Shown: positions 26,089 through 49,157 of the stretch, one piece after another | Numbering within the stretch: the first letter of the stretch is position 1 | How the letters are laid out: every line of letters starts with the position of its first letter | NCBI GenBank assembly: GCA_944325145.1 | Contig: CALYDL010000003.1 | Location: forward strand, 30,559-94,558 | Direction of reading: 5' to 3' | Length of the DNA: 64,000 nt | Source of the DNA: Candidatus Gastranaerophilales bacterium | Lineage (GTDB): Bacteria > Cyanobacteriota > Vampirovibrionia > Gastranaerophilales > Gastranaerophilaceae | Made by a program: the position numbers and the translations under genes | Notes under the pieces: generated by a model | Seen by the model: only the letters and a program-made list of their open reading frames with translations | Databases searched by the model: none | Told to the model about the DNA's origin: nothing

Positions 26089-26101
26089 AATGAAAGGATA
26101 A
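26089..26101. repeat. 13-nt box AATGAAAGGATAA (copy a)
   Basis: On the minus strand it reads TTATCCTTTCATT, 2-3 nt after the stop of pilin 26104..26832. It is the inverted partner of the RBS box at 26837-26848. Confidence 0.7.
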
Positions 26102-26103
26102 TT

Positions 26104-26832
26104 CTATTTCTTAGCCTGAGCCTGATACATCGCTCTTTGCGCTGCAACGCCATAAGGAATTGCAGCTTTTTCTGTAATCATTATAGAAAAAATATCTGTC
26201 AATTTTGTCCCCAAGGGGTCAGCTTGTTTGTAATAGTTGTCAATGGCGCAATCATATGATTTGCAACTTGCATTTTGGGGTGACGGTTTTCTGTCACCGT
26301 TAACATCAACCATAATTATACAAGGTGGTTTTGTTGTGCCATCGGGGTTATTGTTTAATCCATATGATCCACAATAGCAAGGCGTTCCGCCTTCTGCATA
26401 AGTTTTTGTAGTAATAGTGCACAAAGAAATTGCAGGGTTTTCATACAATGGAAAAGATTTTGTATAATGAGGCCCCGACCAATTCCAAAATTCAAAACGC
26501 ATTCCATCCGTAGTATAAAATGCACTATTTCTCCTTTGTCCTTTTGAATCATATGAAATAAATTGCTCAGTCATATGGGGAACAACGCGAGAAACGCTCA
26601 TATGGCGCATTAAAAAAGCCATTAAATCTGCATTATCATAAGGAGATTCGCCATCAATTGCCATATTCATTGTAATGGCACTGTTAAGCACGCTTACTGC
26701 TTTTCTTAATCCTGTTTTAAATTCTTGTTGTTGAGAATTACTGATTACAGATGGTATAGATATTGCTGCAACAACACCAATAATTGCAAGCGTGATAAGC
26801 ACTTCTGCCAGTGTAAAACCTCTTTTTTTCAT
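26104..26832 (-). CDS. type IV pilin-like protein (prepilin N-terminal cleavage/methylation domain), paralog 1
   Basis: 242 aa. MKKRG|FTLAEVLITLAIIGVVAAISIPS, conserved CGSYGLNNNP..PPCIIMVDVNGDRKP and C-terminal AIPYGVAAQRAMYQAQ. Confidence 0.85.
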   Translation of the reverse strand: MKKRGFTLAEVLITLAIIGVVAAISIPSVISNSQQQEFKTGLRKAVSVLNSAITMNMAIDGESPYDNADLMAFLMRHMSVSRVVPHMTEQFISYDSKGQRRNSAFYTTDGMRFEFWNWSGPHYTKSFPLYENPAISLCTITTKTYAEGGTPCYCGSYGLNNNPDGTTKPPCIIMVDVNGDRKPSPQNASCKSYDCAIDNYYKQADPLGTKLTDIFSIMITEKAAIPYGVAAQRAMYQAQAKK

Positions 26833-26836
26833 AAAC

Positions 26837-26848
26837 TATCCTTTCATT
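26837..26848. repeat. box TATCCTTTCATT (copy b), the RBS region of pilin paralog 1 on the minus strand
   Basis: Minus strand reads AATGAAAGGATAGTTTATG. Confidence 0.7.
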
Positions 26849-26919
26849 GTTTTGTTTATTATTCTTTTGCTTTTTTTACTTTTCTTCTTTTTCATCTTTT
26901 ATTTTTTTATCTACCAAAA

Positions 26920-27213
26920 TACTTTTAAAATCATCTGTCTCTACCGAAAGGTGAAGTGGAGGGGCGAGAGTGACCTTTTTTGGGTTTAACATATCACTTT
27001 TAAAATTAATCTTCTTAATTAATAACGCAGCCCCGACTCTGAACAACTTAGGGGACAGATGATTTTAAAAGAAAAGATTAAACTTATTCATTAAGCCTTG
27101 TTTTCTTTTCTTTTTGGTTCGTTTTTCTTTTCTTTGATAGGCGTATGAAAAAAGAAAAGAAAAATGAACGAAAGGAAAAAAATACCTTTCAATAAAAGTT
27201 GGTTTTAAAAGTA
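26920..27213. promoter_or_regulatory. pilin-upstream segment S (locus 1), inverted relative to its homolog at locus 2
   Basis: Plus-strand sequence is homologous to plus-strand 47895-48148, although this pilin gene is on the minus strand. Outer 11-bp IR TACTTTTAAAA (26920-26930) / TTTTAAAAGTA (27203-27213). Inner perfect 18-bp IR 26922-26939 / 27054-27071. Confidence 0.8.
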
Positions 27214-27224
27214 CGAGCTACTTT

Positions 27225-27415
27225 CAAACGCAACAAAATATTCATTATGTTGTAATGGGCTGAAAAAGCTTGAATTAATTGAATGAAAGAAAGTTAAAAA
27301 TATAAAAATAAATAAAAAACCAAACCTTGAAGAAAGGTTTAAAGAATGGTATTATAAAGAAAAGAAAACAAAATGCACCAAAATGAATATTATGGTGCAT
27401 TTTTATTTATTAAAA
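27225..27415. promoter_or_regulatory. conserved far-upstream block X of pilin locus 1
   Basis: Aligns by eye to the reverse complement of 47690-47875, so it has the same orientation relative to each pilin gene. Confidence 0.7.
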
Positions 27416-27439
27416 AACCGCCTTTTTAGGCGGTTTTTA
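27411..27439 (-). terminator. intrinsic terminator of recA
   Basis: AAAAACCGCCTAAAAAGGCGGTTTTTT on the minus strand, directly after the recA stop. Confidence 0.75.
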
Positions 27440-36267: not shown

Positions 36268-36363
36268 TATTTCGCTATATTCAAAATGCAATTTTCCTTC
36301 TTCGTTTTGGTTTAAATAGCCGGCTAATTCTCCATAAAGCCAAACAGAAAGGGGTTTTTTCAT
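36268..36363 (-). pseudogene. hipA: hipA N-terminal remnant (31 codons then a stop)
   Basis: ATGA start/stop overlap with hipB. MKKPLSVWLYGELAGYLNQNEEGKLHFEYSEI* matches the HipA N-terminal coupling-domain pattern. No continuation found in any frame. Confidence 0.55.
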
Positions 36364-36569
36364 AGGTCAATAACCTCAAATTCAATTCCAAGAGAATTTA
36401 AAATTTTTAAAACTTTTCCAATTTGTGCGGTTTCTTTGCCGTTTTCAAATTCAACAATAAACCTCACCCCAACGCTACTTGCAAGCGCAAGCTCGCTTTG
36501 AGTGAGCCCAAGGCTTTTTCTTTTTTCTTTTGCAAATTTCCCTAAATCGCTTGTCGAAGTAATTTTCAA
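36360..36569 (-). CDS. hipB: HipB-like XRE-family antitoxin/regulator
   Basis: 69 aa. LGLTQSELALASSVGVRFIVEFENGKETAQIGKVLKILNSLGIEF (y4mF/HipB-type pattern). Confidence 0.75.
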   Translation of the reverse strand: MKITSTSDLGKFAKEKRKSLGLTQSELALASSVGVRFIVEFENGKETAQIGKVLKILNSLGIEFEVIDL

Positions 36570-36577
36570 AATAATTT

Positions 36578-36774
36578 CCTAAAATTTTCCCGTTCGGTAA
36601 AATTATAACCTTTTTTAACATTAAAATCAACAAATTTTCCCGTTCGGGAAATTTTACCACTTTTTAACCCCAAAAATAATAAAAAATTTCCCGCTTTTGG
36701 AAAATTCCTTCAATTGTCTTTTAAATAAAGCTTTCCAGCCCCATTTTATATGCCCGAATTTTGCTATTTTATAA
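36578..36774 (+). repeat. right direct repeat with three palindromic boxes
   Basis: TTTTCCCGTTCGGTAAAA at 36585-36602, TTTCCCGTTCGGGAAA at 36636-36651, TTTCCCGCTTTTGGAAAA at 36687-36704. Same tail as the left repeat. Lies between divergent hipB and the recombinase gene. Confidence 0.9.
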
Positions 36775-36809: not shown

Positions 36810-37349
36810 ATGACAACAGTTGAACCCATCAGAAATTTATCCGACCTGAAAAAGGTTGAATTTTTGCTTGAAAAAAATAAAAGAAATTTGCTGCTTTTCA
36901 CTCTTGGAATTAACTCCGGCCTTAGAATTTCAGACATTTTAGCTTTAAATGTTCAAGATGTGAAAGACAAAAAATTTATTCAAATAACAGAAAAAAAGAC
37001 AGGCAAATTCAAAAAAATTCCAATAAATTCAAAATTAAGACCAATGATTTTTGAATTTACCAAAAACAAAAGCCCAAATTCACCCTTGTTTGAAACCGTT
37101 TTTAAAAACAGGCTGGATAGATTTGCTGCTTATGAAATAATAAAAACTGCCTGCAAAAAAGCAGGAATTGAAGGCAAAATAGGCACGCACACTTTAAGAA
37201 AAACTTTTGGCTACCACCATTATAAAAAGTTTAAAGATGTTGCGATATTGCAAAAAATTTTCAACCATTCAAGCCCTTCAATCACTCTAAGATACATTGG
37301 AATTGAACAAGATGAAATTTTTGAAAGCTACGAAAATTTTATTTTGTAA
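36810..37349 (+). CDS. small tyrosine recombinase, catalytic domain only (similar in size to FimB/FimE-type invertases)
   Basis: 179 aa. GLRISD (Arg), HTLRKTFGYH (His-x-x-Arg), NHSSPSITLRYIG (His, Tyr). Confidence 0.8.
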   Translation: MTTVEPIRNLSDLKKVEFLLEKNKRNLLLFTLGINSGLRISDILALNVQDVKDKKFIQITEKKTGKFKKIPINSKLRPMIFEFTKNKSPNSPLFETVFKNRLDRFAAYEIIKTACKKAGIEGKIGTHTLRKTFGYHHYKKFKDVAILQKIFNHSSPSITLRYIGIEQDEIFESYENFIL

Positions 37350-37620
37350 AAAATAAAAAAACTAAACTACATAACATTTTTTAAACACCACATAATGTTT
37401 AAAATGTTATATAGTAACTGTTTAATAATATCATAAATAATATAATACTGGAATTTTCTTATTTATATATTTATATTCTTTCAAATTTCTAAAATAAAAA
37501 ATGTTGTGAACTTAGAAAAATTATTTTCTTTTTAGTCCTGAAACTCTTTAAAAATGGGCGTGTTCCTCTATCACCACATTTTAAACAAAATGTTGTGTTT
37601 ATTTTAAAAAGGAGTATATT

Positions 37621-40109: not shown

Positions 40110-40235
40110 TAGAATAACATAATACAAACGACAAATACCTGTTGATTTTTTTAAGAAAAACAATCGGACAAAAGCTAAAGCTTTAAATTTTGAGTCAATC
40201 ACTTCTTTCTGAAGTGTCAGACATAAATTTCTGAC

Positions 40236-41754
<1,519 letters not shown>

Positions 41755-41944
41755 TAGGGAGATTTCGGTAGCGATTGAATTTCAATCAGCGTATAAAACC
41801 GACATCCCAAGGTCGATACCGATATAAAGATTAATTTGTTTATGATTGTTTTATCAAGTTAATCAAGGTATCAAAAAAATCGACAGGTATTTGCAGTTTG
41901 TTTTTGTTTATGTTATTCTTCTTTCAGTGTTCAAACTGAAAACC

Positions 41945-41956
41945 GCACATTGAAAA
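41945..41956 (+). promoter_or_regulatory. BoxA-like motif in the 16S-23S spacer
   Basis: GCACATTGAAAA, just 5' of the outer 23S processing-stem strand. Confidence 0.45.
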
Positions 41957-42040
41957 TTACATATAGATAATAAGCGTAAGTTAACTAAATCGAAATTATT
42001 TTCTGAAAAGTTAATAACGTAATTGAACCAATGTAAGAAA

Positions 42041-42169
42041 GCGTAAGCCGGTGCTGATATGAGCCGTGTTGAACGGCGAATGAAGCACTACGATGGCGAC
42101 GTAGGATAATTGAACCTTGCGAACGACAGCGAATGCGAAGTGAGCAAAAGGTGAAATACCCACAGGAGC
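42041..42169 (+). repeat. diverged copy (E) of the hairpin-repeat core inside the 23S leader
   Basis: GCGTAAGCCGG..hairpin GCCGT-GTTGA-ACGGC (42063-42077)..GGCGACGTAGGATAAT..GCGAAC..GTGAGC..ATACCCACAGGAGC. Confidence 0.85.
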
Positions 42170-42187
42170 CATAAAAGGTTTACGACA

Positions 42188-45192
<3,005 letters not shown>

Positions 45193-45311
45193 TGAATCTT
45201 AGCAAAACACCAAAATGCTAAGTTTATTGGTTCAAAATATTATCTGTATGTAACTTTCAGCGTGTTGGCTGTGAGTTCAATCTCAAAATCAGCTGAACAC
45301 TAACCGGATTT

Positions 45312-45427
45312 TCTGGTGGCCAGGCGGCAGGATCCCACCCGTTCCCATCCCGAACACGGTCGTAAAGACTGCTTGCGCTGACAATACTTGGAGGGTAGCC
45401 TCCTGGGAAGATAAGTAGCTGCCAGAT
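45312..45427 (+). rRNA. rrf: 5S ribosomal RNA
   Basis: TCTGGTGGCC..CCCGTTCCCATCCCGAACACGG..GCTGCCAGA; termini pair. Confidence 0.9.
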
Positions 45428-45500: not shown

Positions 45501-45670
45501 GCTCCCCCTCACAATACTTTTAGGGTAGTCGCTCCTTTTGAAGATAAAGTAGCTTTCAAATTCTATATTAAAAAAAAGTAACCTTTAAGAATTATCTTAG
45601 AGGTTATTTTTTATCTATTTTTTTATCAGCCTTCGATTCCCCTAACAATACTTTTAGGGTAGTCGCTTTT
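45501..45670 (+). repeat. degenerate tandem copies of the 5S 3' half plus terminator
   Basis: CACAATACTTTTAGGGTAGTCGCTCCTTTTGAAGATAAAGTAGCTTTCAAATTCTATATT.. mirrors 45380-45500, including a second terminator hairpin at about 45578-45611. A third partial copy starts about 45634. Confidence 0.8.
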
Positions 45671-45699
45671 ACTATTTATGTTTTTCTTCTCCAAACTTT

Positions 45700-46072
45700 A
45701 AAAGTTCAAACGGTTCAACACCTAATTTATCTGCTTGTTTTGCCTCTGTTAATTCTGAAGTATTTGATATTGATGAAAACCAAACAGTTACTGTTTGTGG
45801 CGGCTGTGGTTCATATGGAATGAAGCATAATCCAAATAGTACAAATAAAGTTCCTTGTGCAATTATAGTTGATGTAAATGGTGACAGAAAGCCTACACCA
45901 CAATTTGCTTGTGCAACTGAAGAAGAATGTGGAAGTAATAGTTTTAAATATTTTTCACCTGATATTAAAACTAAAAAAAATCCATGATATTTTTACGATT
46001 TTAATCACTGAAGATAGGGCAATTCCCTATGGCGTTGCAGCGCAAAAAGCTATGTATCAAGCACAGAAATAG
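45700..46072 (+). pseudogene. 5'-truncated, frameshifted pilin paralog
   Basis: Encodes ..VTVCGGCGSYGMKHNPNSTNKVPCAIIVDVNGDRKPTP.., then stops after an A8 run (45973-45980). The +1 frame continues DIFTILITEDRAIPYGVAAQKAMYQAQK*. No N-terminal prepilin segment. 5' boundary approximate. Confidence 0.8.
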
Positions 46073-46090
46073 TTTATTTTGGTGCTAAAT

Positions 46091-46408
46091 TTATTTTTCA
46101 AATTCAATTGCTTTATAAAATTTATAAATTGCCTTTAAAATTTTCTTGTCTTTAATAGCCTTAATAATTTCTTCTTCCATTTCTTCTTCGCAAACGGGGT
46201 CAAAATAATAAAATTCATATGGCTTAACATTCATAACTTCTGAAAGCTTTTGCAGAGTATCGGGCGATGGGGCAAATTTCCCTGTTTCAATATAGCTTAA
46301 ACTTTGTGGTTCAATTCCAATAAGTTCGCTTAATTGCTCTTGGGTAAAACCTCTGTTTTTTCTAATAGCTTTAATTTTTTGCCCAATAAAAACTTTTATG
46401 TCTTTCAT
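46091..46408 (-). CDS. XRE-family HTH regulator
   Basis: 105 aa. RGFTQEQLSELIGIEPQSLSYIETGK. Divergent from pilin paralog 2. Confidence 0.8.
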   Translation of the reverse strand: MKDIKVFIGQKIKAIRKNRGFTQEQLSELIGIEPQSLSYIETGKFAPSPDTLQKLSEVMNVKPYEFYYFDPVCEEEMEEEIIKAIKDKKILKAIYKFYKAIEFEK

Positions 46409-46545
46409 TAAAAAACTCCATTTTGAAAAGTAATAACAGAATTTACCCCTTAATTACATAGACTAATTGTTTAAAATATAATGAAAAATAAAATAAATAC
46501 TTTATAATATATAAAGAAATAGTTTAAATTTTGGAGAATTTTTAA

Positions 46546-47280
46546 ATGTATAAATTAAAAGCTTTCACACTGGCAGAAGTTTTAATAACTCTTGCTATCA
46601 TTGGCGTAGTTGCAGCAATATCTATTCCAAGTGTTATTTCAAACTCTCAACAACAAGAATTTAAAACTGGATTAAGAAAAGCCGTCAGCGTGCTAAATTC
46701 AGCTATTACTATGAATATGGCAATTGATGGCGAAACACCATATGAAAATAAAGATTTATACTATTATCTACAAAGGCATATGGGGGTTTTAAAAACAACG
46801 TTAAGGATGCCATATAATACAGTAACAAAAAGGAATGACGGCAGAACTAATTCAAATACTGACAATGCTGCTTTTTATACAACAGATGGTTTTAGATATG
46901 AATTTAACATCTCAAAAGTTGGTGACACCGCAGAAACACTAAAACTCCATGAAAGCAACGTTTATGCTTGTTCGGCAACTCACCCTGTAAATTTAGGCTG
47001 GGTTACTTGCGGCGGGTGCGGTAGCTATGGGCTAAACCATAATCCAAATGGCACAACAAAACCCCCTTGTCTTATTATGGTTGATGTAAACGGCGATAAA
47101 AAACCAACGCCATCAAATGTTAATTGCCAAAGTCCGGAGTGTGTTTCTCAAAATTTGTACAAAGTGCCACTTCCGGCTGAAAAGAAAGTTCGCGATATAT
47201 TTTCAATTTTAATAACAGAAGATAGGGCGATTCCTTACGGGGTGACAGCACAAAAAGCAATGTATCAGGCACAAAAGTAA
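46546..47280 (+). CDS. type IV pilin-like protein, paralog 2
   Basis: 244 aa. MYKLKA|FTLAEVLITLAIIGVVAAISIPS (Ala at -1), CGGCGSYGLNHNPNGTTKPPC, C-terminal AIPYGVTAQKAMYQAQK. Confidence 0.85.
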   Translation: MYKLKAFTLAEVLITLAIIGVVAAISIPSVISNSQQQEFKTGLRKAVSVLNSAITMNMAIDGETPYENKDLYYYLQRHMGVLKTTLRMPYNTVTKRNDGRTNSNTDNAAFYTTDGFRYEFNISKVGDTAETLKLHESNVYACSATHPVNLGWVTCGGCGSYGLNHNPNGTTKPPCLIMVDVNGDKKPTPSNVNCQSPECVSQNLYKVPLPAEKKVRDIFSILITEDRAIPYGVTAQKAMYQAQK

Positions 47281-47620: not shown

Positions 47621-47635
47621 TTTATCCTTTCATTT
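47621..47635. repeat. box TTTATCCTTTCATTT (copy c)
   Basis: Complement of the pilin RBS box. Sits between array C and the terminator. Confidence 0.7.
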
Positions 47636-47689: not shown

Positions 47690-47875
47690 CCCCATAATGT
47701 TCATTATGTTGCATTCAAGTTCTATAACCTTATATTATCATTATTTTAACCTTTGTTCAAGACTTGTTTTTTTATTATTTTTTATATTTTTCATTTTCTT
47801 TCATTCAATAATATCAACATTTTCTACCCCAACGCAACAAATTGAACATTTTGTTGCGTTTAAAAATTAATCGCA
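47690..47875. promoter_or_regulatory. conserved far-upstream block X of pilin locus 2
   Basis: Reverse complement aligns by eye to 27225-27415. Confidence 0.7.
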
Positions 47876-47894: not shown

Positions 47895-48148
47895 CTTTTA
47901 AAATTGTTTACTTTTACTGAAAGGCGAGGCGTCGGGGCGGGAGTGACCTTTATAGAGAATAAGCAATATTCTTTTAAAATCTAATTTTCTTAATTAATAA
48001 CGAAGCCCCGACTCTGAGCAACTTAAGGAGTAAACAATTTTAAAAGAAAAGATTAAACTTATTCATTTAAGCCAACGTTTCTTTCTTTTCCTGCCTATTT
48101 TCTTTCTTTGCGTGCGGCGTTTGAGCCAAAGAAAGAAAATAGGCAAAG
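47895..48148. promoter_or_regulatory. pilin-upstream segment S (locus 2)
   Basis: A perfect 18-bp IR (47895-47912 / 48029-48046) encloses a 116-nt core. It is followed by conserved GAAAAGATTAAACTTATTCATTTAAGCC and a long polypyrimidine/polypurine hairpin (about 48078-48148). Confidence 0.8.
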
Positions 48149-48159
48149 AGCAATTAAAT

Positions 48160-48173
48160 AATGAAAGGATAAA
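48160..48173. repeat. box AATGAAAGGATAAA (copy d), the RBS region of pilin paralog 3
   Basis: Immediately upstream of ATG 48176. Inverted partner of copies c and e. Confidence 0.7.
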
Positions 48174-48175
48174 TT

Positions 48176-48907
48176 ATGAAAAGATTTTATGGGTTTACAT
48201 TAGCGGAAGTGCTTATCACGCTTGCTATCATTGGCGTAGTTGCCGCAATTTCTATTCCAAGTGTTATTTCAAACTCTCAACAACAAGAATTTAAAACAGG
48301 CTTAAGAAAAGCAGTTTCTGTTTTAAATAGTGCCATAACTATGAATATGGCAATAGATGGCGAAACACCATATGATAATAAAGATTTATTTGGATATTTA
48401 ACAAGACATATGAGCACCTTGAAAGCTCCTGCAACAATTGATTTTGCTTATTATTATAAGTCTCATGACGGCAGCGTGACTGTTGGCGGACATAATTATG
48501 GTTTTTATACAACTGATGGTATTAGATTTGAGTATTATGGTTCTGCAAAAAATACCAATTTCCCTGGGCCAAAACTTCATGAAAGCGGTGTTAGGTCGTG
48601 TGTAAATAATGCTGATGGTTTTTGCGGCGGTTGTGGGTCATATGGCCTCAATCATAATCCCAATGGTACAACTAAACCCCCATGCGCTATTTTAGTTGAT
48701 GTAAATGGCGACAAAAAACCATATCCGGGCAATGTAAATTGCAAGTGGGCAGATGGTGTGAAATGTTTTGGTAAATATAATGTATTAAAAGGCCCGCTTC
48801 CGGGTGAAAAGAAAATTAAAGATATTTTTACAATTTTAATCACAGATGAAAAAGCCATTCCCTATGGCGTAACTGCGCAAAAGGCAATGTATCAGGCACA
48901 GAAGTAA
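48176..48907 (+). CDS. type IV pilin-like protein, paralog 3
   Basis: 243 aa. MKRFYG|FTLAEVLITLAIIGVVAAISIPS, CGGCGSYGLNHNPNGTTKPPC, C-terminal AIPYGVTAQKAMYQAQK. Confidence 0.85.
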   Translation: MKRFYGFTLAEVLITLAIIGVVAAISIPSVISNSQQQEFKTGLRKAVSVLNSAITMNMAIDGETPYDNKDLFGYLTRHMSTLKAPATIDFAYYYKSHDGSVTVGGHNYGFYTTDGIRFEYYGSAKNTNFPGPKLHESGVRSCVNNADGFCGGCGSYGLNHNPNGTTKPPCAILVDVNGDKKPYPGNVNCKWADGVKCFGKYNVLKGPLPGEKKIKDIFTILITDEKAIPYGVTAQKAMYQAQK

Positions 48908-49143: not shown

Positions 49144-49157
49144 TTTATCCTTTCATT
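49144..49157. repeat. box TTTATCCTTTCATT (copy e)
   Basis: Between array D and the terminator. A degenerate further copy, TATCTTTTCATTC, is at 49261-49273. Confidence 0.7.

Follow-up and report, generated by a model that had tools for sequence, protein, structure and literature searches.

Candidate promoter invertons and a reoriented leader cassette upstream of type IV pilin-like genes in a Gastranaerophilales bacterium

The stretch of DNA analyzed here (the window: 64,000 nucleotides of contig CALYDL010000003.1, positions 30,559 to 94,558 of the forward strand, from the Candidatus Gastranaerophilales bacterium assembly GCA_944325145.1) encodes three type IV pilin-like paralogues and a small tyrosine recombinase that adjoins a polysaccharide locus (Table 1). 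Paralogues 1 and 3 (loci 1 and 3) are preceded by the same pair of non-coding blocks, the distal block X and block S, which lies between X and the pilin ATG. The first-pass annotation of this DNA, made from the sequence alone, treated X as a fixed landmark and proposed that S, which is inverted in one of the two loci, is an ON/OFF switch. Examination of related loci bears out the general notion that the pilin paralogues are located behind DNA inversion switches, but through the other block: X, far from being a landmark, is the element with direct evidence of two states, no locus shows S cleanly in both states, and a contig search for the alternative state of S came back empty. The comparison covers 87 fetched loci (contigs or loci denoted L###); the population evidence consists of consensus assemblies, which give the majority orientation per sample, retrieved through a look-up that collapses similar places.

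Both window copies of X are bounded by paired, near-palindromic sites that match at 18 of 22 positions in X1 and at 17 of 22 in X3, with the centers ATTC/GAAT or GTTC/GAAC. The consensus of these sites (22–23 bp) reads CA(C/A)CA(A/T)AAT, followed by an asymmetric center of 4–6 nt and by ATT(T/A)TG(G/T)TG; a near-palindrome with a short asymmetric center is the usual form of the core site of a tyrosine recombinase. Such site pairs bound every X examined, and most of these elements contain the promoter-like motif TTGAAN-17-TAWWAT. Within the 2-kb regions around each locus, only the inverted repeat (IR) of X and that of the S core reach 18/22 matches at a spacing of 100–220 nt.

Inversion of X can be gleaned from three loci. 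In the first of these, which is represented by three samples and where the gene order is S16 gene, pilin, X, S and pilin P0097, a stretch of 166 nt ahead of the first pilin has the same sequence (100% identity) in L032 as in L031 and L034, but the opposite orientation. The inverted stretch is bounded by perfect 23-bp repeats (CACCAAAATGTTATATTTTGGTG and CACCAAAATATAACATTTTGGTG), and the motif inside it (TTGAAT-17-TAATAT) faces the pilin ATG in L032 only. The second case is the locus of clpX and pilin P0074, where X has one orientation in L075 and the opposite one in L070, L071 and L073; here, too, the bounding repeats are perfect 23-mers, the inverted stretch is, on inspection of the sequences, the exact reverse complement of that in the other three contigs, and the motif TTGAAC-17-TATGAT faces the gene in L075 only. 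The third case is L043, in which the interior of X is reversed relative to the window X3 (80% identity) and to L019 (87%). The sites of this element, CCCCATAATGTTCAATTTGTTG and CAACATAATGAACATTTTGTTG, correspond exactly to the hybrids that a crossover at any of positions 8–14 would generate from the locus-3 sites of the window; such exact exchange of half-sites is a hallmark of site-specific recombination of the conservative kind. The motif points away from the pilin in all the remaining loci examined, those of the window among them.

The switch of type 1 fimbriae in E. coli, fimS, works with the recombinases FimB and FimE. By the inversions observed in homologues and, for the window copies, by homology and the match to the hybrid sites, X would be a fimS-like promoter inverton that is in the OFF state in both window loci. 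We infer that X has promoter activity and that its direction decides whether the pilin is expressed: a tyrosine recombinase would exchange strands within the asymmetric center of the X sites, and the inversion would turn the promoter toward or away from the pilin gene.

The first-pass annotation had nominated the tyrosine recombinase of the window as the invertase and described it as consisting of the catalytic domain only. The nomination is credible, given the FimB/FimE-like size, the catalytic residues and the adjoining inverton that is seen flipped, but the gene is complete, not truncated: the protein belongs to a family of 179–180 aa, with 70–80% identity, that is present across Gastranaerophilaceae assemblies. 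It matches the FimB/FimE-type models PRK09870 and PRK09871 over nearly their full length (positions 26–172 of 198) with scores of 37.9 and 28.5 bits, far under the respective cut-offs of 222 and 221, and thus represents a separate family of similar size and domain content. The catalytic R, H-x-x-R, H and Y residues align to the XerC-like structure 4a8e.

This recombinase gene is always followed by ~270–285 nt and then by a polysaccharide gene (Stealth or GT2), while the other neighbors vary. In the window, this spacer contains an IR-bounded element, denoted P, which is an inverton, as confirmed in the window's own species. L064 has the 219-nt stretch in the opposite orientation (97% identity), between collinear flanks and next to an identical recombinase protein; P has the window orientation in the 13 other contigs of the 14 that encode an identical or 98%-identical recombinase. 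At the same position beside a 74%-identical homologue of the recombinase, an 801-nt segment is inverted in L051 compared with L050 and L052–L055. The promoter scan yielded no promoter that could be assigned to P. The arm of P, CACCACATAATGTT, is similar to the arms CACCATAATATT and CCCCATAATGTT of X; from adjacency and site similarity, the 179-aa recombinase is the likely invertase for P and plausibly that for X. The same enzyme would then flip P at the head of the polysaccharide locus and perhaps the X blocks of the pilins. Among ten further open reading frames (ORFs) of the window that were tested, there is no serine invertase. The region upstream of the recombinase gene (36360–36720) contains three TTTCCCGTTCGG(T/G)AAA-like repeats and a divergent ORF of 69 aa with an HTH_3 domain (36360–36569), next to which lies an HD-domain gene in the window and hipA in other strains (for example, L056).

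The inversion of S flagged in the first pass is real. When the pilin upstream regions are compared with the window using blastn, 26922–27114 aligns plus/plus to 47895–48089 (79% identity, E 1e-39) and 27199–27417 aligns to the opposite strand of 47888–47670 (75%, E 4e-39). Because S is homologous plus-to-plus while X and the pilin genes are on opposite strands, S is flipped relative to X and the gene at locus 1 as compared with locus 3. The homology had been drawn as extending over 26922–27176 and 47895–48148; it holds as far as 27114 and 48089, and past 27114 the hairpin is retained as a hairpin but not as a sequence. Perfect 18-bp inner IRs (IRL and IRR; 26922–26939 with 27054–27071, and 47895–47912 with 48029–48046) enclose 114–116 nt.

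The flipped segment of locus 1 was also described as bounded by an 11-bp outer repeat, and so it is: TACTTTTAAAA (26920) and TTTTAAAAGTA (27203) occur once each in the 64-kb window. Eight of the 11 bases make up the palindrome TTTTAAAA; with 44 copies of this palindrome in the window, the 11-bp repeat alone is weak evidence. It extends, however, to 15 matches out of 17 (26920–26936 versus 27197–27213), and gains weight because six other flipped modules have junction IRs of 14–24 nt with no more than two mismatches. The promoter proposed within S fared less well. The TTG(T/C)TC-17-ATTAAT element is present on the minus strand, but its −10 part is poor and it fails the sigma-70 scan, where promoter-like hits are no more numerous than in shuffled sequences; moreover, the −10 part is replaced in core variant B, which is used by several flipped modules.

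The S unit consists of the core, the conserved c27 box of 26–27 nt and a polypyrimidine/polypurine hairpin. The c27 box is retained in all S copies that have a tail, and the two tail types (1 and 3), although different in sequence, both form a hairpin. All 34 c27-bearing S copies, with 18 distinct complete cores, have one and the same orientation of the core relative to c27 and the hairpin. The unit is rigid, and inversion of the core alone is ruled out for the tailed modules. Three types of modules can be delineated from the position and direction of this unit. In type D (window locus 3, L002, L016, L042 and L043), the order is X, S on the plus strand, RBS (ribosome-binding site) box and pilin. 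Type F (window locus 1, L013, L017, L019–L023, L027, L031, L040 and L076) has X, S on the minus strand, a leader L, in some cases an additional element E, the RBS box and the pilin. Type G (L081–L083 and L085) consists of X in the OFF orientation, IR type 3, the core on the plus strand, IR type 1, leader L and the pilin, with neither c27 nor the hairpin; in L081, these parts map to 363–512 with 495–663, and the two IR arms are no longer complementary in the inner 8 nt. Leader L accompanies every flipped S copy and none of the direct copies with a tail. In seven F modules (window locus 1 and six others), the cassette is bounded by IRs of 14–24 nt, with at most two mismatches, around TTTTAAAA (for example, CCAACAAGCCTTTTAAAATCAACT and CCAACCAGCCTTTTAAAATCATCT in L040). 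The core variants A1, A2 and B and the tails 1 and 3 are found in nearly all combinations, in a mosaic pattern.

Table 1. Coordinates of the features discussed in the text (window positions unless a related contig is named)
Feature	Coordinates	Strand	Remarks
Pilin-like paralogue 1	26104..26832	minus	242 aa, prepilin N-terminal methylation motif; Pfam PF07963, NCBIfam TIGR02532
Leader L	26833..26919	minus	A-rich, with RBS box; homologues in L017, L018, L019, L021, L022, L027, L040, L081
Gene-side arm of outer S IR	26920..26936		TACTTTTAAAATCATCT; overlaps IRL; 15/17 with 27197-27213
S core, locus 1	26922..27071	plus (structured strand)	18-bp perfect IRs enclosing 114 nt
c27 conserved box, locus 1	27072..27097	plus	AAAAGATTAAACTTATTCATTAAGCC; partly complementary to RBS box
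Polypyrimidine/polypurine hairpin, tail type 1	27098..27185	plus	
X-side arm of outer S IR	27197..27213		AGTTGGTTTTAAAAGTA
X1, putative inverton	27231..27397		sites 27231-27252 (CAACAAAATATTCATTATGTTG) and 27376-27397 (CACCAAAATGAATATTATGGTG), ~123-125 bp between
Promoter-like TTGAAG-17-TATTAT (TG-extended) in X1	27327..27355	plus	directed away from pilin 1 (OFF orientation)
Tyrosine recombinase, candidate invertase	36810..37349	plus	179 aa; Phage_integrase domain, PF00589 1.4e-24
P inverton	37382..37601		between recombinase stop and Stealth/RgpF polysaccharide genes; 26-nt IRs 37382-37407 and 37576-37601, 88% complementary
Pilin paralogue 2	46546-47280		prepilin-type N_methyl protein
X3, putative inverton	47690..47856		sites 47690-47711 (CCCCATAATGTTCATTATGTTG) and 47835-47856 (CAACAAATTGAACATTTTGTTG)
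Promoter-like TTGAAC-17-TAATAT in X3	47732..47760	minus	directed away from pilin 3 (OFF orientation)
S core, locus 3	47895..48046	plus	IR type 3: 47895-47912 and 48029-48046; direct relative to gene
c27 and hairpin type 3, locus 3	48047..48149	plus	c27 48047-48073, polypyrimidine/polypurine hairpin 48078-48149; ends ~10 nt before RBS box
Pilin-like paralogue 3	48176..48907	plus	N_methyl pilin-like; RBS box at 48160-48171
Element E	L002 2617-2747; L013 4323-4445; L019 659-781 and 1420-1551; L022 2335-2457; L031 3543-4037; L040 2335-2457		

With perfect 18-bp terminal IRs on a 150-bp core, each arm including a TTTTAAAA that is readable as a duplicated target, S could be taken for a non-autonomous mobile element similar to miniature inverted-repeat transposable elements (MITEs), inserted independently, in either orientation, upstream of the pilins; other small insertions with IR ends, element E and an insert in the hairpin, do litter these regions. 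This origin appears highly unlikely, however. Nearly all copies of S are in pilin upstream modules next to a pilin, the exception being L015, where S lies between two X, and none is at an unrelated site. A search with the pattern of the junction between IRR and c27 retrieved only four contigs from a collection of 185,579 species genomes, all from a single related metagenome-assembled genome (MAG), that of Candidatus Galligastranaerophilus intestinigallinarum; among metagenome contigs, four matched. Furthermore, the unit that changes orientation is the core with c27 and the hairpin, which is larger than the IR-bounded core; the compensatory changes of the locus-3 IR variant continue inside the element, which fits selection on pairing; there is no transposase nearby; and the dispersed copies, target duplications and empty sites expected of a sequence derived from a MITE or an insertion sequence were not found for S.

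Element E, which does not occur in the window and has no Rfam match, measures ~125–165 nt; its interior (GTAGCACG...GAAGTGCGCCAAGG...GAGCCGCTAG) is conserved, and its terminal stem varies. Copies of E interrupt an S core, separate duplicated RBS boxes and, in inverted orientation, lie 3' of pilins. The hairpin insert, of ~78 nt, occupies the polypyrimidine arm in some D and F alleles (L002 2828–2905, L040 ~1975–2055 and also L045).

The plus strand of S is predicted to fold with a minimum free energy of −81.6 kcal/mol (z −6.8), compared with −70.2 kcal/mol for the minus strand. Relative to locus 1, the S of locus 3 shows eight compensatory base pairs, two of these outside the perfect IR, and several G-U pairs that exist on the plus strand only; since this covariation comes from one divergent sequence, it is suggestive and not proof. 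The AATGAA of the RBS box is a potential pairing partner of c27 (…CTTATTCATT…), and this pairing appears in the predicted fold of locus 3; by direct reading, the UCUUUUC stretch of the polypyrimidine arm could pair with the GAAAGGA Shine–Dalgarno region. Judging from these folds, c27 may pair with the RBS box, and this pairing potential points to a role of S in translation or mRNA stability in the D modules. S would accordingly be, in terms of the model, a structured leader cassette between X and the pilin start that is read on the plus strand.

An autonomous S, be it a gene for a small RNA or a divergent regulatory region driven by its own promoter(s), for which the orientation relative to the pilin is irrelevant and a pilin or X may lie on either side, would also account for the strong structure and the compensatory changes of the core. 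Two loci have the expected appearance: in L018 (1–620), S is located between two divergent pilin genes, without X, and in L015 (3600–4360), it lies between two inverted X copies, with no adjacent pilin. There is also a weak promoter-like match on the plus strand inside the locus-3 core. We nevertheless consider an autonomous S improbable. L018 and L015 are single short or MAG contigs and might both be chimeras joined via the ~270-bp S repeat of D and F modules, and the two-sided arrangement is downgraded for this reason. Core variants A and B have no conserved promoter-like motif in common, whichever strand is considered, and the terminator scan found no terminator past the S hairpin on either strand. 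In the search of the window against Rfam 15, only rRNAs pass the gathering score, with no match for S or X, and permissive searches of S and six related loci yielded only chance matches of the hairpin type. Finally, the hairpin of the D modules abuts the RBS box, which argues for a leader role in cis.

The alleles that occupy the same locus with opposite orientations of S differ in much more than this orientation. At the recA locus, L001 (the window allele, type F) and L002 (type D) have flanks that are 98.6–99.5% identical, and nucleotides 181–729 of the pilin are 100% identical. In contrast, the first 180 coding nucleotides differ at 24 positions, with the protein unchanged, and the entire S region differs as well, in the core variant, an inserted element and the hairpin insert. 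The alleles of pilin P0069 with opposite S likewise differ in the core, the tail, the leader and the N-terminal coding sequence, and are found in different genomic contexts. Such differences across the whole 5' module of the same pilin indicate module replacement by recombination and not a clean flip. Under the simplest reading, all same-locus differences in the orientation of S would result from replacement of whole 5' modules by homologous recombination.

The predicted unflipped state of an F module has the order X, S on the plus strand, distal repeat, leader L and gene, and in locus 1 it would be marked by the junctions X-TACTTTTAAAATCATCTGTC(core) and (hairpin)GTTGGTTTTAAAAGTATTTTGGTAG(L), with TCGTACTTTTAAAATCATCTGTC and AAGTTGGTTTTAAAAGTATTTTGGTAG as the S junction sequences. 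This state (direct S with the distal IR and L) is found in none of the 87 fetched loci, which include ~12 independent F loci on ~40 contigs; similar sampling did reveal a minority state of X, at three loci, and of P, in two sets. Both orientations of S at one locus with otherwise identical sequence were not encountered in these consensus assemblies. Furthermore, the S repeats have no symmetric arms and are centered on the palindrome TTTTAAAA, so that, unlike the X and P sites, they lack polarity. X-type sites, through which the enzyme of X could flip S as well, are absent from S and L (at up to two mismatches across the window and up to one in the fetched loci).

Taken together, these observations lead us to favor, with moderate confidence, an explanation in which X is a working switch, P is another one at the glycan locus, and the orientation of S is a fixed difference between module types. 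The window belongs to a gut bacterium of the Gastranaerophilales type; its type IV pilin-like paralogues, which are hypervariable, would undergo phase variation through invertible promoters of the fimS kind. On this account, the difference in orientation would go back to a past inversion of the whole cassette S at the TTTTAAAA repeats, and the D and G modules would have arisen from the unflipped state by deletion. Homologous recombination between conserved sequences, those of X and those that encode the pilin N-terminus, would then have carried the module types from one locus to another. The opposite orientations of S in the two window loci would, from this comparison of alleles, represent a fixed difference between module types rather than two states of a working switch.

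Several observations weigh against this explanation, and most of them favor a second-tier switch. In this tentative alternative, a recombinase, the same one or another encoded elsewhere, would invert the cassette between the TTTTAAAA-centered repeats of F modules, so that the DNA between X and the pilin would specify either a permissive, structured sense leader or the non-permissive complement of this leader. In F modules, the ends of the flipped cassette coincide exactly with sizeable IRs. D modules (L002 and L043) and F modules (L040 and L027) share an identical X-side flank as far as CTTTTAAAATCA, where the sequences part, as recombination at the S repeats would leave it. In the comparison of G with window locus 1, the core is 88% identical on the opposite strand while the leader and the gene start are 87% identical on the same strand; a core inverted relative to the same L and gene start implies that rearrangement at the TTTTAAAA repeats probably occurred more than once. 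G modules correspond to the unflipped state with c27 and the hairpin deleted between the direct repeats IRR and Rterm (the cassette-ending repeat past the hairpin), and the junction between the tail and the RBS in D modules resembles the unflipped state without the distal IR and L. Near-identical cores are found in both contexts (a difference of 1 nt between L043 and L033 and of 3 nt between L042 and L027, by our own count), from which it follows that the D and F contexts often exchange sequence.

The structure and the G-U pairs further suggest that the plus strand of S is a functional RNA. The X promoter of F modules would transcribe the complement of S, so that these modules could not make the plus strand from X, and the only S-containing module caught with X in the ON orientation, L043, is a D module with S direct; this keeps the idea of a two-tier switch alive. 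A minority state of S would be missed because the assemblies give the majority orientation and similar places are collapsed. Many contigs break inside S or inside X, which fits heterogeneity but is also expected of repeats and is, hence, uninformative about it. The remaining difficulties concern X itself: in the 10 contigs that represent locus 1 and the two that represent locus 3, X is invariably OFF, and the promoter function of X and the assignment of the recombinase to it are predictions.

If S does switch, the pilin loci would carry two invertible elements in series, the promoter inverton X and an RNA-structured cassette S recombined at the TTTTAAAA repeats. Each pilin paralogue would then require two switches to be set, and deletion at the same repeats would produce the locked D and G alleles. 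We regard this possibility as doubtful, given the failure to detect the unflipped state with L when minority states of X and P were caught, the dissimilarity of the S repeats to the X and P sites, the absence of a second recombinase among the window ORFs tested, and the fact that the same-locus orientation differences come with different N-terminal coding sequences, core and tail variants. A module-type difference in S, combined with working switches in X and P, accordingly remains the explanation that we favor.

Comparison with known inversion systems brings out both familiar and distinctive features. Like fimS, X and P are short IR-flanked segments of the promoter type (the promoters in X and P being predicted) located directly upstream of a surface-appendage or surface-glycan gene, and like FimB and FimE, the window recombinase belongs to the class of ~180–200 aa without a large N-terminal domain. 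Unlike fimS, with its IRs of 9 bp and a single target, the window elements have near-palindromic IRs of 22–26 bp and several targets scattered over 64 kb, with no fewer than two pilin loci and a glycan locus; the recombinase adjoins the glycan inverton and not the pilin invertons, and the appendage is a type IV pilin-like protein rather than a chaperone-usher fimbria.

In Bacteroidales, promoter invertons are found at capsular polysaccharide and fimbrial loci. Their multi-locus character has been charted in surveys of the PhaseFinder type (PMC11892184, PMC11602134). The similarity to the window extends to the gut commensal lifestyle, the dispersal of promoter invertons (predicted ones, in the window) before surface polysaccharide and pilus or fimbria genes, the shared IR family with a conserved invertase that would, in the window, likewise act in trans, and the predominance of OFF copies in consensus assemblies. 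The differences lie in the phylum (Vampirovibrionia/Melainabacteria-type) and in the recombinase family. In the literature searched, there is no paper that links invertons to the pilins of Gastranaerophilales or Melainabacteria. Judging from these searches, the kind of mechanism, promoter invertons with a small tyrosine recombinase, is known and is newly seen in this clade.

For S, should it be active, the closest model is provided by the RecV-dependent switches of C. difficile, the flagellar switch (Cdi4) and cwpV, which are IR-flanked 5'-UTR (untranslated region) cassettes of a few hundred bp or less. The flagellar switch spans 154 bp with 21-bp IRs, lies in the 5' UTR downstream of the promoter, contains no promoter itself and acts after transcription initiation (PMC5386303). 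In contrast to these switches, S has yielded two states at no single locus, would act in series with a separate invertible promoter, has palindrome-centered repeats and carries a long, conserved RNA-like structure.

DNA inversion also diversifies type IV pilus proteins in other bacteria: the R64 shufflon (Rci) and Moraxella Piv invert coding segments and thereby swap the C-terminal ends of these proteins, the shufflon combining multiple sites in both orientations at one locus. In the window, unlike in these systems, the inverted segments are non-coding, and the C-terminal diversity is held by separate paralogues. The pilE/pilS gene conversion of Neisseria (PMC3547852) offers a further comparison. 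As in Neisseria, a constant N-terminal coding region flanks the variable pilin bodies, structured non-coding DNA lies upstream, the 5' modules and pilin bodies appear, from the alleles, to be re-assorted by recombination, and the window includes a 5'-truncated pilin fragment. Unlike in Neisseria, the window paralogues are full-length genes, each with its own predicted switchable promoter.

The pilin family itself is very large, with 1,245 clusters at 90% identity (E<=1e-20), and residues 6–62 are identical among the three window paralogues when the proteins are compared. The RBS box AATGAAAGGATA is present at both locus 1 and locus 3, as the first pass had noted. Further copies of this box occur in inverted orientation ~5–340 nt past the stop of each pilin (26089–26100 on the plus strand, 47623–47634 and 49146–49157 on the minus strand), within a conserved 3' motif of ~33 nt that is followed by a terminator; these copies could pair in the mRNA with the 5' RBS box or could be recombination flanks for pilin cassettes. 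Upstream of paralogue 2 (46091–46545), there is neither X nor S, and this gene is, therefore, controlled differently from paralogues 1 and 3; it is preceded by a divergent helix-turn-helix (Xre-type) gene (46091–46408). The truncated pilin fragment (45658–46072, plus strand) is frameshifted, comprises only approximately aa 110–244 and lies immediately past the 5S rRNA gene; it is promoterless and resembles a silent cassette. Its end overlaps an X-like half site, CACAGAAATAGTTTATTTTGGTG, at 46062–46084. The adjacent rRNA operon (16S-23S-5S) occupies 40234–45427, and there is no tRNA gene in its spacer or elsewhere in the window.

To our knowledge, the surface biology of Gastranaerophilales/Melainabacteria, uncultured gut relatives of cyanobacteria, is almost wholly unknown. 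The locus described here indicates a phase-variation program in these bacteria that is similar to that of Bacteroides. In this program, a family of promoter invertons, accompanied by a conserved tyrosine recombinase of small size, would precede both a very large and hypervariable repertoire of type IV pilin-like genes and a locus for surface polysaccharide; pilin bodies and 5' control modules appear to be re-assorted by recombination. More generally, the case of X illustrates that a block taken as a fixed reference can itself be the moving part. If S also switches, this would be an uncommon case of two inversion switches acting in series on one transcript. Because the inversion sites are defined to the base, existing metagenomic reads can directly provide the ratio of the two orientations, for comparison with host, diet or inflammation.

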